NCBI GenBank assembly: GCA_042408445.1
Contig: JBHORC010000023.1
Span: 11,920-75,919 of the forward strand
Direction of reading: 5' to 3'
Source: Chloroflexota bacterium
GTDB taxonomy: Bacteria > Chloroflexota > Limnocylindria > Limnocylindrales > CSP1-4
Length of the DNA: 64,000 bases
The position numbers were made by a program, and so were the translations under genes. Within the stretch, counting starts at the first letter, position 1. The number at the start of each line of letters is the position of its first letter. Shown here piece by piece: positions 41,466 to 45,632 of the stretch. The notes under the pieces were generated by a model. It was not told the DNA's origin and ran no database searches. It saw only the letters and a list, made by a program, of their open reading frames with translations.

Positions 41466-41541
41466 TGGAGCGGGAGACGGGGTTCGAACCCGCGACATTC
41501 AGCTTGGGAAGCTGACACTCTGCCAACTGAGTTACTCCCGC
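41466..41541 (-). tRNA. tRNA-Gly (anticodon CCC), CCA encoded
   Basis: Reverse complement is GCGGGAG-UA-ACUC-AGUUGGCA-GAGU-G-UCAGC-UUCCCAA-GCUGA-AUGUC-GCGGG-UUCGAAC-CCCGU-CUCCCGC-U-CCA, which folds into a clean cloverleaf. Confidence 0.93.
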
Positions 41542-41594: not shown

Positions 41595-42233
41595 CTATTC
41601 CGAGGCGGCGCCGGCCGATCCCGCGCCGACGACCGGGAGTCGCAGGATCGATCGGGCGCGAGCGGCCGGGACGTCGTGCTCGTCGGCCAGGTCGAGCTCG
41701 TGGAGGTACGACCCGGCCTCGAGGCCACGCTCACGGACCGCATCGAGCAGCCGGCGAACGGTCGCGGCCTGTTCGGATCGACGGCCCAGATGCAGGATCT
41801 GCGCCGCCGCGCCGTCCCCGAAGAGCGTGACCCGGACGAGCGGCACCTCGCGCTGACCCTGTCGGGCGGTGTCCGCGATCGCGGCGAGCGCCTCCTCCTC
41901 CGACGCGGTCCCGTCGACCTCGATCATCTGCCGCCACCGCCAACCGGAGCGATCCGCGAGCTGCAGCAATGCCGTCCCCACCGGAACGTCCTCGGGCCAC
42001 CACCACACACACTCGAGGATCGTCTGGCCCGGGGACGACAGATGGCGGTCCCGGACCCACGACTCAAGCCGCCGCTCGACGTCCCGGAGCGTGGCCCTCG
42101 CCAGCGCGAACTCCGCGGCGGTTGGCGACCCGCGCCCATCGATCGCGAACACGCGACGGGAGCCGGAGGTGACGAAGGACGGCTGGTCCGTCGCAGCGTG
42201 GCGAAGGTCGAATCGCGAGCTGATCGAGTCCAT
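41595..42233 (-). CDS. GyrI-like small-molecule-binding domain protein
   Basis: ATG 42233 (MDSISSRFDL...). ILECVWWWPED and AAQILHLGRRSEQAATVRRL resemble GyrI/SOUL-like effector domains. The upstream 120 codons of the ORF look non-coding. Confidence 0.45.
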   Translation of the reverse strand: MDSISSRFDLRHAATDQPSFVTSGSRRVFAIDGRGSPTAAEFALARATLRDVERRLESWVRDRHLSSPGQTILECVWWWPEDVPVGTALLQLADRSGWRWRQMIEVDGTASEEEALAAIADTARQGQREVPLVRVTLFGDGAAAQILHLGRRSEQAATVRRLLDAVRERGLEAGSYLHELDLADEHDVPAARARSILRLPVVGAGSAGAASE

Positions 42234-42457
42234 CACGGGCGACGAGCACGGGTCCGGGGTTCGGCAGCCCTCACGCGCACAGCGTCCCGCAGATCGGGAG
42301 CGCGCCGCAACGAACAGCGCCAGTGACGCCTTGCGTCGCCGATACAGTTGCCACCCGTCGCCGGCGGGCCCGCGGCCGCGCGGTCCCCATCCGGACGCGA
42401 CGCGCAACCGGAACGCAACTTGCGCCGCGAGGGATCGGCTGCGACACTCCCCCGGCC

Positions 42458-42526
42458 ATGACCCGACCTCGACTCCCGGGCCGCTGTCTCTGTCCGTTCC
42501 CCTGCGAGGCAGGACGGGCAGCGTAA
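42458..42526 (+). CDS. candidate regulatory leader peptide, 22 aa with 3 Cys (MTRPRLPGRCLCPFPCEAGRAA)
   Basis: ATG 42458 and TAA 42524. Cys codons are TGT 42485, TGT 42491 and TGC 42503. It lies inside alternative hairpins just upstream of a terminator and the rhodanese gene. Confidence 0.45.
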   Translation: MTRPRLPGRCLCPFPCEAGRAA

Positions 42527-42556
42527 TCGCGCGTTGGAAGACCGCGGACTCTCCCT

Positions 42557-42585
42557 GACCCCTGCTTGGCAGGGGTCTTCTGTTT
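42557..42585 (+). terminator. intrinsic terminator in the 5' leader of the rhodanese gene
   Basis: GACCCCTGC-TTG-GCAGGGGTC followed by TTCTGTTT. T-rich runs are very rare in this window. Confidence 0.6.
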
Positions 42586-42625
42586 CCCGTCACCGGGCAA
42601 CGCCCGAACCAGGAGAGTCCATCCG

Positions 42626-43990
42626 ATGTCGAACCCTGCTCCCACCATCGAACCCGTGACCGCTGACGAGCTCGCGGCCCTGCTCCGCGCGGGGAGCGTC
42701 ACCGCCATCGACACCCGCCCGCTCGCCGCGTTCAACGGCTGGCAGCTCGGCAGCGAGGCCCGGGGCGGCCACATCCCCGGCGCCGTCGCGATCCCGGCGG
42801 AATGGCTGCCCCGGCTCGATGATTCCGATCTCGAAGCGATCGTCCGCGACCACGACCTCCCGAGCGGAAGCACCGTCGTCCTCGTCGGGTCCGGCGACGA
42901 CGACCTGGACGGCGATGCGACCGGGCTGGCCAAACGCCTCGCGCGTCTCGGGCTCGACGTCCTGCGGCTGGCGGGTGGCTGGCCGGCCTGGACCGCCGAT
43001 GCAGCTCGACCGGTCGACTCGTTGCCGCGCTTCGAGGCGCTCGTCCATCCGGCCTGGCTGCTCGAGGTGCTCGGCGGCGGTCGACCGGAAGCCGCGCCGG
43101 CCGGCGAGCATCTGCTCTTCCACGTGAACTTCGGGGTTCCCGAGGAGTACGCCGAAGGCCACATCCCGGGCGCGCTCTACCTCGACACGAACTGGCTCGA
43201 GGACCCGGACGGCTGGAACCGCCGGACGCCGGCGGAGCTCGATCAGGCCGTCCGCGCGCTCGGCATCACCACCAGGACGACCGTGATCCTCTACGGCCGC
43301 GACACCGAGGGTGACGCGAACGAGAAGTGGCCCGGTCGCCGAGCGGGCCAGATCGCCGCTACCCGTGCGGCGCTGATCCTGCACTACGCCGGCGTCGACG
43401 ACGTGCGGCTGCTCGACGGCGGCTACGACCGCTGGGTCCGTGACGGACATCCGGTCGAGACGACCGATCGGCAGCCGGTCCCGGTCGACTCGTTCGGGGC
43501 GGCGATCCCCGTCCGGCCGGAGATCATCGTCGACCTCGACGAGGCGAAGGAGATCCTCGCCGATCCCGCCCGAGCCGCCCTCGTCAGCGTCCGGACCTGG
43601 CGCGAGCACATCGGCGCGGTCAGCGGCTACAACTACATCGGGCCGGCCGGCCGGATCGCGGGCGACGTCTGGGGCAACTGCGGCACCGACGCGTACCACA
43701 TGCAGCACTACCGCGCCGTCGACAACACGATGCGGCCGTACCCGGAGATCGTCGCCAACTGGGCGGAGGCGGGGATCACCGCGGACAAGCGCGTCGCGTT
43801 CTACTGCGGCACGGGCTGGCGAGCCAGCGAGACGTGGTTCTACGCGTACCTGCTCGGCTGGTCGAACATCGCCGTCTACGACGGCGGCTGGCTCGAGTGG
43901 AGCAGCGACCCGGCCAACAACCCGATCCTCGTCGGGGACCCGACCCAGGCCGTGGCGAACCTCGTCGCCGCCGGCGAGGAGGTGGCCTAG
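42626..43990 (+). CDS. thiosulfate/3-mercaptopyruvate sulfurtransferase with three rhodanese domains
   Basis: AGGAGAG RBS. GGHIPGA repeats. Catalytic loop FYCGTGWRAS in the last domain. The first domain lacks a Cys. Confidence 0.8.
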   Translation: MSNPAPTIEPVTADELAALLRAGSVTAIDTRPLAAFNGWQLGSEARGGHIPGAVAIPAEWLPRLDDSDLEAIVRDHDLPSGSTVVLVGSGDDDLDGDATGLAKRLARLGLDVLRLAGGWPAWTADAARPVDSLPRFEALVHPAWLLEVLGGGRPEAAPAGEHLLFHVNFGVPEEYAEGHIPGALYLDTNWLEDPDGWNRRTPAELDQAVRALGITTRTTVILYGRDTEGDANEKWPGRRAGQIAATRAALILHYAGVDDVRLLDGGYDRWVRDGHPVETTDRQPVPVDSFGAAIPVRPEIIVDLDEAKEILADPARAALVSVRTWREHIGAVSGYNYIGPAGRIAGDVWGNCGTDAYHMQHYRAVDNTMRPYPEIVANWAEAGITADKRVAFYCGTGWRASETWFYAYLLGWSNIAVYDGGWLEWSSDPANNPILVGDPTQAVANLVAAGEEVA

Positions 43991-44063: not shown

Positions 44064-44093
44064 TTGACACGTTAGGACGGCCGCCCGTACGAT
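44064..44093 (+). promoter_or_regulatory. sigma-70-type promoter for the riboswitch transcript
   Basis: TTGACA (44064-69), 18-nt spacer, TACGAT (44088-93), about 18 nt upstream of the aptamer. Confidence 0.5.
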
Positions 44094-44111: not shown

Positions 44112-44218
44112 CTCTTATCAAGAGTGGCGGAGGGACCGGCCCGTTGAAGCCACGACAACCTACCGACGTCGAGTCGGCAAGGTGCCAATTCCGGGCAGGT
44201 CCTCCTGCACGATAAGGG
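44112..44218 (+). promoter_or_regulatory. SAM-I (S-box) riboswitch aptamer
   Basis: CUCUUAUCAAGAGUGGCGGAGGGACCGGCCCGUUGAAGCCACGACAACC...AAGGUGCCAAUUCCGGGCAGG...CACGAUAAGGG matches the S-box core nearly base for base. P1 is CUCUUAUC/GAUAAGGG. Confidence 0.9.
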
Positions 44219-44253: not shown

Positions 44254-44303
44254 TCCTCGTGTCCGGTCCGCTCCTCGTCGCTCCATCCGCCGCAGGAGCC
44301 GAC

Positions 44304-45632
44304 ATGACGACCGAGATGGCACCGTTCCGAACGACCGAGCCCGAGCCCCGGGCGGGCCGGCCGGTCATGGCTGCGGAACGGATTCGCGGGCTCGTCTGTC
44401 GTCGCTGCGGCCGGCCGGAGACGCTCGGACCGTCCTACGTCTGCTCGGCCTGCTTCGGGCCCCTCGAGGTCGCGTACGACCGGGACGTCGTCCGCGAAGC
44501 GCTGAGCCGCGAGTCGATCGAGGCTCGCCGACCCGGCATCTGGCGGTATCTCGAATTCCTGCCCGTGGACGCGCCGCCGGCCCGTGCGCTCGCCGTCGGC
44601 TCGACGCCGCTCGTGCCCGCGGAGCGACTCGGTCCGGCGATCGGCGTCGATCGGCTCTGGCTGAAGGACGACAGCCGCAACCCGACGCTCTCGTTCAAGG
44701 ACCGGGCGGTGGCCGTGGCGGTCGCCCGCGCGGCGACCTTCGGGATCGAGACGCTCGCCTGCGCCTCCACCGGAAACCTCGCCGGAGCGACTGCCGCTGC
44801 CGCGGCCGCGGTCGGCATGCCCGCGTACGTCTTCATCCCCGCCGATCTCGAGCGGCCGAAGGTCGACCACGCCCTGGCGTATGGCGCCACCGTCGTCCCC
44901 GTCGACGGGACCTACGACGACGTGAACCGGCTCTGCCTCCAGGTCGCCGACGAGCTCGGCTGGGGGTTCGTCAACGTCAATCTGCGGCCGTTCTACGCCG
45001 AAGGGAGCAAGACCCTCGCCTTCGAGATCGCCGAATCGCTCGGCTGGCGCTCGCCGGACGTCATCGTCGCGCCGATCGCCTCCGGGGCGATGTTCACGAG
45101 GCTCGCCCGCGGGTTCGAGGAGCTCGCCGATGCCGGCCTCATCCACCGCCGTCCGATCCGCTTCGTCGGGGGTCAGGCCGCCGGCTGTTCGCCGGTCGCG
45201 ACGGCCTGGGGACGCGGCGAGGAGGTCCAGCCGGTGCGGAACCCGGAGACGTTCGTCCACTCGCTGGCGATCGGCAATCCGGCCGACGGCGACGCCTCGG
45301 TCGAGCTCGCGACGGCAACCGCGGGTTCGATCGAGGCGATCGAGGATCGGGACACCGCGGCCGCGATCCGCGACATCGCAACGCTCGAGGGGATCTACAC
45401 GGAGACAGCGGGCGGCGTGACGGTGGCCGCGGCCGCGGCCGCCCGACGACGCCGCGTGATCCGCGACGGCGACGAGGTCGTCGCGATCCTCTCCGGCAAC
45501 GGGATGAAGACGCCCGACGCTCGGCTCCTCGGCGGCGGCGAGCGCGAGGCGCGGCCCGGTCGGCCCGGTCTCGCGCCGGTCATCCGCCCGCGACTCGACG
45601 ACTTCGAGGGCTGGCTGGAGGGACGGGCATGA
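44304..45632 (+). CDS. threonine-synthase-like PLP enzyme with N-terminal zinc ribbon (MetM-type homocysteine synthase candidate)
   Basis: GCAGGAG RBS 5 nt before ATG 44304. CRRCG...CSACFG. PLP-lysine region SFKDRAV and ACASTGNLAG. Confidence 0.75.
   Translation: MTTEMAPFRTTEPEPRAGRPVMAAERIRGLVCRRCGRPETLGPSYVCSACFGPLEVAYDRDVVREALSRESIEARRPGIWRYLEFLPVDAPPARALAVGSTPLVPAERLGPAIGVDRLWLKDDSRNPTLSFKDRAVAVAVARAATFGIETLACASTGNLAGATAAAAAAVGMPAYVFIPADLERPKVDHALAYGATVVPVDGTYDDVNRLCLQVADELGWGFVNVNLRPFYAEGSKTLAFEIAESLGWRSPDVIVAPIASGAMFTRLARGFEELADAGLIHRRPIRFVGGQAAGCSPVATAWGRGEEVQPVRNPETFVHSLAIGNPADGDASVELATATAGSIEAIEDRDTAAAIRDIATLEGIYTETAGGVTVAAAAAARRRRVIRDGDEVVAILSGNGMKTPDARLLGGGEREARPGRPGLAPVIRPRLDDFEGWLEGRA

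Follow-up and report, generated by a model that had tools for sequence, protein, structure and literature searches.

A conserved cysteine-codon leader, probably a transcription attenuator, upstream of a triple-rhodanese sulfurtransferase gene in Limnocylindria (Chloroflexota)

A 64,000-nucleotide stretch of the genome of a Chloroflexota bacterium (contig JBHORC010000023.1, positions 11,920 to 75,919; the whole stretch is referred to below as the window) encodes a triple-rhodanese sulfurtransferase, whose gene is preceded by an intergenic region of ~390 nucleotides (nt). The upstream neighbour, a gene with a weak GyrI-like match that starts at 42233, is divergently oriented, so that this region can be assigned to the rhodanese gene. 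It contains a promoter, a short open reading frame (sORF) with closely spaced cysteine (Cys) codons, alternative RNA pairings and an intrinsic terminator, and the whole arrangement recurs before orthologs at 65–83% protein identity. This leader is real, conserved and previously undescribed, and is most likely a representative of the leader-peptide attenuator class. It probably controls transcription through a ribosome on the leader peptide, with charged tRNA-Cys as the signal and, as judged from the sequences, the rhodanese gene is most likely switched on upon shortage of charged cysteine tRNA. A previous, sequence-only reading of this DNA had proposed that a translated Cys-codon sORF overlaps terminator and antiterminator pairings and controls the rhodanese gene; this core idea is borne out by the conserved frame, the synonymous exchange of Cys codons and the conserved terminator and GCAGGG motif, and the interpretation as a whole, largely supported by the comparative data, was essentially right.

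The features of the locus, with their coordinates in the window and their strand, are the following.

42420–42448, + strand: promoter, with -35 box TTGCGC (42420–42425), a 17-nt spacer and -10 box GACACT (42443–42448), at a position conserved in the family.
42458–42526, + strand: leader sORF of 22 codons, MTRPRLPGRCLCPFPCEAGRAA, from ATG 42458 to TAA 42524–42526, with no Shine-Dalgarno (SD) sequence upstream; its frame is conserved.
42485–42493, + strand: putative regulatory codons TGT-CTC-TGT (Cys-x-Cys), conserved at the codon level in the main clade.
42491–42505, + strand: segment 1, the 5' strand of the anti-antiterminator (1:2 hairpin), which holds the second Cys codon, CCTGC and the third Cys codon, TGC 42503.
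42507–42524, + strand: segment 2, the 3' part of the sORF, AGGCAGGACGGGCAGCGT, which has two alternative predicted partners, segment 1 on the one hand and the anti-SD region plus the 5' arm of the terminator on the other.
42527–42547, + strand: hairpin P (-8.0 kcal/mol), which directly follows the stop codon, can form in either conformation and covaries in the family.
42546–42554, + strand: anti-SD sequence GGACTCTCC, a perfect complement of 42612–42620.
42557–42585, + strand: intrinsic terminator (segments 3 and 4), with a 9-bp GC-rich stem-loop GACCCCTGC-TTG-GCAGGGGTC at 42557–42577 and the T tract TTCTGTTT at 42578–42585.
42612–42628, + strand: SD region GGAGAGTCC at 42612–42620, with GGAG at 42612–42615, and start codon ATG at 42626.
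42626–43990, + strand: the gene under putative control, for a 454-residue triple-rhodanese sulfurtransferase of the EanB/YnjE type with three PF00581 domains.

Conservation of the leader and of its reading frame

The comparison was based on genome loci and metagenome contigs. Among 80 genome loci with orthologs at 65–72% protein identity, a strict rule called the leader in 63; variant leaders occur at L032 and L043 and a degenerate one at L017. All six of the closer relatives, which reach 83% identity, carry the leader. The search pattern GCAGGGCAGGTGGTG-N35-65-CCCCTGC matched 97 metagenome contigs, of which 83 have the ortholog directly downstream, nine end too early to tell and five are chance matches; 92 were counted as carrying the leader, and wherever a contig offers enough DNA the ortholog lies directly 3' of it. 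No second copy of the leader was found in the window or in the flanks of the loci, and no other target gene appeared among the informative metagenome matches. The protein homologs are annotated as Candidatus Limnocylindrales or Chloroflexota, and all carriers of the leader belong to the class Limnocylindria of the Chloroflexota and none to the actinobacteria.

Throughout the family the elements follow in the same order: promoter, ATG, sORF, hairpin P beginning at the stop codon, a pyrimidine-rich stretch, terminator, ~40 nt, SD sequence and start codon. The promoter has a -35 box TTGnnn, a spacer of 17–18 nt and a -10 box such as CAGAAT, CACAAT or GACACT, and each member locus has a match to TTGnnn-N17/18-nAnnnT in the same position; that of the window scores under the threshold of a generic scan. 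The ~40 nt between the T tract and the SD sequence leave no room for a separate promoter. The sORF begins 8–10 nt after the -10 box in most leaders, with no SD sequence and almost exclusively with ATG; the sequences make it plausible that the sORF is leaderless, and a leader of 1–3 nt before the AUG is equally possible.

Despite variable N-termini the sORFs are 20–29 codons long, and their length changes by whole codons. When the ATG was picked solely by its distance from the promoter and the frame of Cys-x-Cys was scored afterwards, the two were in the same frame (frame 0) in 59 of the 63 genome leaders and 75 of the 76 metagenome leaders, and this comparison points to translation of the sORF.

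The leaders fall into a main clade and the clade of the window. Across 114 unique main-clade sORFs, the first conserved position encodes Cys in 100 (TGT 76, TGC 24) and the second in 111 (TGT 102, TGC 9). The codon between them is free to vary, extra Cys codons occur at five neighbouring positions and consecutive Cys codons are merely sporadic, the conserved pattern being Cys-x-Cys. An sORF carries two to five Cys in ~23 codons, compared with 0.6% of codons in the genes of the window. In genes TGT is rare (8 TGT against 61 TGC in the window genes, 2 against 133 in the orthologs, that is, 88–98% TGC), whereas the two conserved leader codons are TGT in 76% and 92% of ~126 unique leaders; the leader thus prefers the rare, wobble-read UGU. 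This preference may adjust how sensitively the leader responds to tRNA-Cys charging, or it may reflect a constraint on the RNA; the leu leader of E. coli uses rare Leu codons in a similar way.

All the coordinates given in the sequence-only reading proved right, including those of the sORF (42458–42526) and of the three Cys codons on which it relied (TGT 42485, TGT 42491, TGC 42503), and in the relatives the sORF and its Cys codons are kept along with the hairpins. The two TGT codons are the conserved ones; TGC 42503 is probably incidental, a by-product of the clade-specific frame over a conserved CTGC. By geometry, a ribosome stalled at this third codon would cover segment 2 too.

The 3' half of the sORF is constrained at the level of nucleotides. 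In the main clade, the codons GCC-(GAG)-CAG-GGC-AGG-TGG-TGT show almost no synonymous change, and Arg in this half is always AGG, though the genes use CGN ~40 times more; the single variable codon, which is located in a loop, changes non-synonymously. GCAGGG, a copy of the 3' arm of the terminator, is conserved inside the sORF. In the window clade a 1-nt shift causes CTGC...GAG...GCAGG to be read as ...PFPCEAGRAA instead of the ...AAEQGRWCR of the main clade. Because its nucleotides are frozen and are read in another frame in the window clade, the 3' half of the sORF is an RNA element.

Several observations concern individual leaders and loci. In many leaders runs of His codons adjoin the Cys codons, as in HHHCMCH (L063, L067, L072, L182 and L183, just 5' of Cys-x-Cys). 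The similarity of the enzyme to EanB led to histidine being considered as a second sensed amino acid, which is the less likely reading: GGTGGTG in the 3' part of the same leader's sORF is the complement of the CAC runs, and the window has no such runs. Given the complementarity of CACCAC and GGTGGTG, the His enrichment is probably structural, at the RNA level, although the enzyme resembles a histidine-derivative sulfurase. The heptamer CCGTCAC occurs 20–30 nt before the start codon, between terminator and SD sequence, in 22 of 63 leaders; in the window (42588–42599) it forms a small hairpin, CCCG-UCAC-CGGG. At L017 one of the Cys codons is gone and the terminator is a different one, and at L043 no T tract follows the hairpin; both could be variant leaders or leaders in decay. 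Ten ortholog contigs labelled Gaiellales or Actinomycetes are without the Cys leader (L006, L020, L024, L031, L054, L055, L057, L070, L077 and L079). They share a box, (A)TAGTCGCTTTACTTTGTATA, ~60–100 nt upstream of the ortholog start, which may represent a promoter plus operator, and as far as their sequences indicate the same gene is under a different regulatory device there.

Terminator, alternative pairings and anti-SD helix

The terminator of the window folds at -16.7 kcal/mol (z = -4.6) and is the only terminator-like site between 41500 and 44500. Its family form is (G)ACCCCTGC-loop-GCAGGGGT(C) followed by a T tract, with an invariant stem and a loop of 3–8 nt; in helix pair counts made on 63 sequences, 91.7% of cells are paired and the helix is almost invariant. 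The repeats from which the sequence-only reading had derived its alternative structures were confirmed, with CCCCTGC at 42499–42505 and 42559–42565, GCAGG at 42509–42513 and GCAGGGG at 42569–42575. A DNA operator was considered as an explanation of these palindromes and rejected as unlikely, given the spacing of the arms, which varies from 3 to 8 nt, and the T tract that always follows.

Two further predicted helices would compete for the same nucleotides. The second Cys codon is part of the 1:2 hairpin (42491–42521; -16.1 kcal/mol, z = -3.1), and in the family 88.8% of cells of this helix are paired, with a few double changes. The antiterminator fold (42507–42567) reaches -25.0 kcal/mol; its core, GCAGGG:CCCTGC, is pairable in 97.9% of cells and never varies on both sides, so that no covariation backs the 2:3 pairing. 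Hairpin P, with 80.4% of cells paired, does covary (UA 37 / CG 17 at one pair, CG 39 / GC 7 at another). RNAalifold, applied to the raw alignment, recovered just the terminator. Hairpin P and the anti-SD:SD helix described below covary, and the 1:2 and 2:3 helices have only conserved complementarity. An additional pairing that the sequence-only reading had proposed, between GAAGACC (42537–42543) and GGTCTTC (42574–42580), involves motifs that are present at these positions, but the pairing is lost in the closest relative (L178, GAACGACC).

When nucleotides under a ribosome positioned on the second Cys codon were masked and the 3' arm of the terminator was withheld, at least 5 nt of the 5' arm were paired with sORF nucleotides in the minimum-energy fold of all 60 leaders (60/60), with a mean energy of -38.6 kcal/mol as against -30.9 kcal/mol for shuffled sORF tails. 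The terminator state is favoured by ~4.5 kcal/mol on average, and any antitermination must therefore be kinetic; the balance in the trp leader is similarly kinetic. In the main clade, 10–14 nt separate segment 1 from the second Cys codon upstream of it, and the stop codon follows segment 2 at a distance of ~11–15 nt. By this geometry the spacing would fit the footprint of a bacterial ribosome, such that a stalled ribosome would mask segment 1 and a ribosome at the stop codon would mask segment 2.

In the window clade a further helix, missed by the sequence-only reading, joins the anti-SD sequence to the SD sequence. The module 42546–42620 folds at -40.4 kcal/mol (z = -4.5), and the helix covaries in the ten window-clade leaders (GGACTTCTCC/GGAGAAGTCC, GACGCTCC/GGAGCGTC, GCTCTCCGG/CCGGAGAGC); their cognate duplexes average -16.6 kcal/mol as against -12.2 kcal/mol for non-cognate ones, with none of 5000 permutations as low. 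In 121 main-clade leaders anti-SD:SD pairing is not above the non-cognate controls. The helix was accordingly rejected as a feature of the whole family and is confined to the window clade. The predicted antiterminator pairs the anti-SD sequence with the 3' end of the sORF, and this model suggests that termination and access to the SD sequence are under coupled control in the window clade.

Proposed mechanism, alternative explanations and the enzyme

In the mechanism that we infer, including where transcription starts, that the ribosome stalls, that segments 2 and 3 pair in vivo and which way the gene responds, transcription would start at, or a few nt before, AUG 42458, and a ribosome would translate the 22-codon sORF close behind RNA polymerase. 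With cysteine plentiful, the ribosome would reach the stop codon at 42524 and cover segment 2 (42507–42524) together with the 5' half of hairpin P; with segment 2 covered, the terminator (42557–42577) and its U tract would form, and transcription would end before the rhodanese gene. In the absence of a ribosome, segments 1 and 2 would pair, and the terminator would form as well. With Cys-tRNA scarce, the ribosome would stall with UGU 42485 or 42491 in the A site, occupying segment 1; the free segment 2 could then pair with the emerging anti-SD region and the 5' arm of the terminator, the terminator would be blocked, and polymerase would read into the rhodanese gene. In the window clade, pairing of GGACUCUCC (42546–42554) with the SD sequence (42612–42620) would, in addition, probably keep transcripts that carry the terminator hairpin untranslated.

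A number of results weigh against this mechanism. Covariation for the 1:2 or 2:3 helix was not found in the nearly invariant sequences, and the comparison of cognate with non-cognate duplex energies gave at best p ~0.045 for 2:3 and nothing for 1:2. The antiterminator fold of the window has a z of only -1.4, and 66% of the trials with shuffled G-rich sORF tails still gave pairing to the C-rich arm, so that composition by itself yields some pairing of the 5' arm. The accessibility of the SD sequence in constrained partition-function folding is 0.31 in the antiterminated state as against 0.22, no clear rise; since it changes so little at equilibrium, the coupled control suggested for the window clade stays at the level of a suggestion. 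Three leaders (L012, L044 and L049) have a promoter-proximal ATG out of frame with Cys-x-Cys or an sORF without a stop codon, anomalies that could be indels or assembly errors, and L182 has Cys-x3-Cys. Finally, were the enzyme an EanB-like ergothioneine synthase (see below), its induction on cysteine shortage would not be obviously sensible.

Three other explanations have to be weighed against transcription attenuation. A purely translational attenuator of the mycobacterial type, in which stalling at the Cys codons frees the SD sequence of the rhodanese gene and the hairpin and U tract are a structural module or a leaky stop, would account for the strong covarying anti-SD:SD helix of the window clade (-16.6 against -12.2 kcal/mol, 0/5000), for the stability of the 42546–42620 module (-40.4 kcal/mol, z = -4.5) and for the pairing of anti-SD nucleotides with the 3' part of the sORF in the antiterminator fold, and the experimentally studied Cys system is indeed translational (10.1101/834739). 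The 121 main-clade leaders, however, keep the terminator and the U tract without anti-SD:SD pairing, equilibrium accessibility of the SD sequence hardly differs between the states, and the Cys codons themselves do not pair with the SD sequence; we consider this explanation improbable. The same low probability attaches to the sORF being an independent small gene with its own terminator, the product of which would be a Cys-rich peptide with a function of its own (such as that of persulfide acceptor or metal-binding partner of the sulfurtransferase), and expression of the enzyme would be left to constitutive partial read-through. Its N-terminus is unconstrained, its C-terminal half is conserved as nucleotides and not as amino acids (PFPCEAGRAA against HAAAEQGRWCR, with no synonymous changes), it uses the rare TGT and it holds a conserved copy of the 3' arm of the terminator. 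A peptide function would fit the conserved Cys-x-Cys, with neighbouring His such as HHHCMCH in many leaders, and the constant linkage to the sulfurtransferase gene; the CAC codons for His, however, are explained at the RNA level by their complementarity to GGTGGTG.

Very little probability remains for an antitermination element responsive to a ligand or protein, either riboswitch-like or bound by an RNA-binding protein at the repeated GCAGGG / CTGC, with an incidental ORF. Segment 2 and both arms of the terminator are indeed conserved more strictly than base pairing requires, but 134 of 139 leaders keep the promoter-anchored ATG in frame with Cys-x-Cys, whole-codon indels and the TGY-NNN-TGY pattern are unexpected in a non-translated RNA, and Rfam gives no family match; a protein acting on a DNA operator is unlikely because the spacing of the palindrome varies from 3 to 8 nt. 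A search of Rfam with the leader yielded no match at E <= 10, and a scan of the whole window at gathering cut-offs just an S-adenosylmethionine (SAM) riboswitch and a tRNA, both outside the leader. Transcription attenuation through the leader peptide is the explanation that we favour.

The nearest solved structure to the rhodanese protein is that of the O2-independent ergothioneine synthase EanB of Chlorobium limicola (6h98; 379 bits, 45% identity over 420 aligned residues). A further high-scoring solved relative is YnjE of E. coli (310 bits), and the scores do not separate the EanB from the YnjE subfamily. Tyr353, Cys412 and Arg417 of EanB have equivalents in the protein, in which SGYNY and FYCGTGWR align with the catalytic residues. 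According to Seebeck's group, many EanB-like enzymes are without known function (PMC9516567). No EgtD/EanA-type methyltransferase or sulfur gene was found among the genes within ~10 kb of the locus, and gene neighbours vary from locus to locus. The Cys-codon leader argues for a role of the enzyme in sulfur supply, in parallel to the mycobacterial Ms5788A-cysA2 case, and the putative link of its expression to the charging of Cys-tRNA offers a clue to the function of EanB/YnjE-like triple-rhodanese enzymes.

The rhodanese gene of the window is followed by a SAM-I riboswitch (RF00162, 74.4 bits, 44112–44218, + strand), which stands behind a near-consensus promoter, TTGACA-18-TACGAT (44064–44093). 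The gene downstream of the riboswitch (44259–45632) encodes a threonine-synthase-like pyridoxal phosphate enzyme (TIGR00260, above cut-off); a SAM riboswitch on a thrC-like gene that adjoins a putatively Cys-attenuated sulfurtransferase is an unusual pairing. On the other side, a tRNA-Gly(CCC) gene (41466–41541, - strand) lies downstream of the divergent GyrI-like gene.

A more far-reaching proposal can be made only tentatively, and we regard it as possible but rather doubtful: the 3' end of the sORF would capture both the 5' arm of the terminator and the adjacent anti-SD sequence, so that a single stalled ribosome couples read-through and SD release in the window clade, and the widespread EanB/YnjE-like triple rhodaneses would be sulfur-scavenging enzymes induced by cysteine shortage, not ergothioneine synthases. 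If this is true, the device of the window clade is a combined transcriptional and translational cysteine attenuator on a leaderless sORF. The leader motif can be used in the annotation of Limnocylindria genomes.

Comparison with known leader-peptide attenuators

The classical leader-peptide transcription attenuators control amino-acid operons such as trp, his, leu and thr of E. coli and Salmonella. The Chloroflexota leader shares with the trp type the short sORF carrying codons of the putatively sensed amino acid, the four segments with their predicted 1:2, 2:3 and 3:4 pairings, the intrinsic terminator just before the regulated gene, the ribosome that would cover segment 2 from its position at the stop codon, and a terminator slightly more stable than the antiterminator. 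It differs in that it would sense cysteine, has an sORF without an SD sequence that begins 8–10 nt after the -10 box and is probably leaderless, contains the extra covarying hairpin P inside the predicted antiterminator and is followed by a single sulfurtransferase gene, not a biosynthetic operon; it also belongs to another phylum, Chloroflexota, and in the window clade adds a helix that sequesters the SD sequence. According to Naville and Gautheret, leader peptides were known only in Proteobacteria, Actinobacteria and, through their own work, Firmicutes. The literature searched reports no leader-peptide system for Chloroflexota, and searches for this element in Chloroflexota or Limnocylindria gave no match.

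For cysteine, attenuation mediated by an upstream open reading frame (uORF) had, by the authors' own account, not been described before the work of Canestrari et al. (2020, 10.1101/834739) on the mycobacterial leaderless polycysteine sORFs Ms5788A/Rv0815A, whose runs of up to eight Cys codons pair with the SD region in a translational system without a terminator. As in that system, a Cys-codon sORF without an SD sequence probably stands at the 5' end of the transcript, and in both a ribosome that stalls when cysteine is limiting is proposed to allow expression; the target, too, includes a rhodanese-type sulfurtransferase, since the operon regulated by Ms5788A contains cysA2, a rhodanese-type thiosulfate sulfurtransferase gene (10.1101/834739). 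Unlike the mycobacterial leaders, those of Chloroflexota have two spaced Cys codons and a canonical terminator throughout the family, and the SD sequence pairs, in the window clade only, with a separate anti-SD sequence (42546–42554) and not with the Cys codons. The two systems show no sequence similarity and belong to different phyla, and their resemblance is therefore convergent. The sequence-only reading had left open a homologous or a convergent relationship, and of these the homologous one falls away: the pattern is Cys-x-Cys and not poly-Cys, a terminator is present and there is no pairing between the Cys tract and the SD sequence.

Among actinobacterial leaders, those described by Seliverstov et al. 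(2005, PMC1262725) before cys/cbs genes are similar in that they, too, are short ORFs, with Cys codons close to the stop, but they have no conserved hairpins or terminators, and Rho-dependence was suggested for them, whereas in the Chloroflexota leader nothing is conserved more strongly than the terminator and the alternative pairings. Terminator-based Cys leader-peptide attenuation had been predicted, as a prediction only, a single time, for cysS of Rhodobacterales: the uORFC-8-2 motif, with tandem Cys-Cys at positions 14–15 (Brewer et al. 2021, PMC8632094). Compared by its published description, it likewise places its Cys codons within the first stem, and the stem and run of U that come next were interpreted as an intrinsic terminator, but it is found in Alphaproteobacteria before a cysteinyl-tRNA synthetase gene, and the Chloroflexota leader has spaced Cys codons, a rhodanese target and an unrelated sequence.

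The Chloroflexota leader belongs to neither the mycobacterial nor the uORFC-8-2 family, since the defining features of both were looked for and are absent from it. Its family adds to these systems a well-defined, probable cysteine attenuator from an uncultured soil class of Chloroflexota, with ~150 members, clean codon-level signatures and a bias towards rare codons, and the device resembles classical trp-type attenuation more than it does the mycobacterial translational system.

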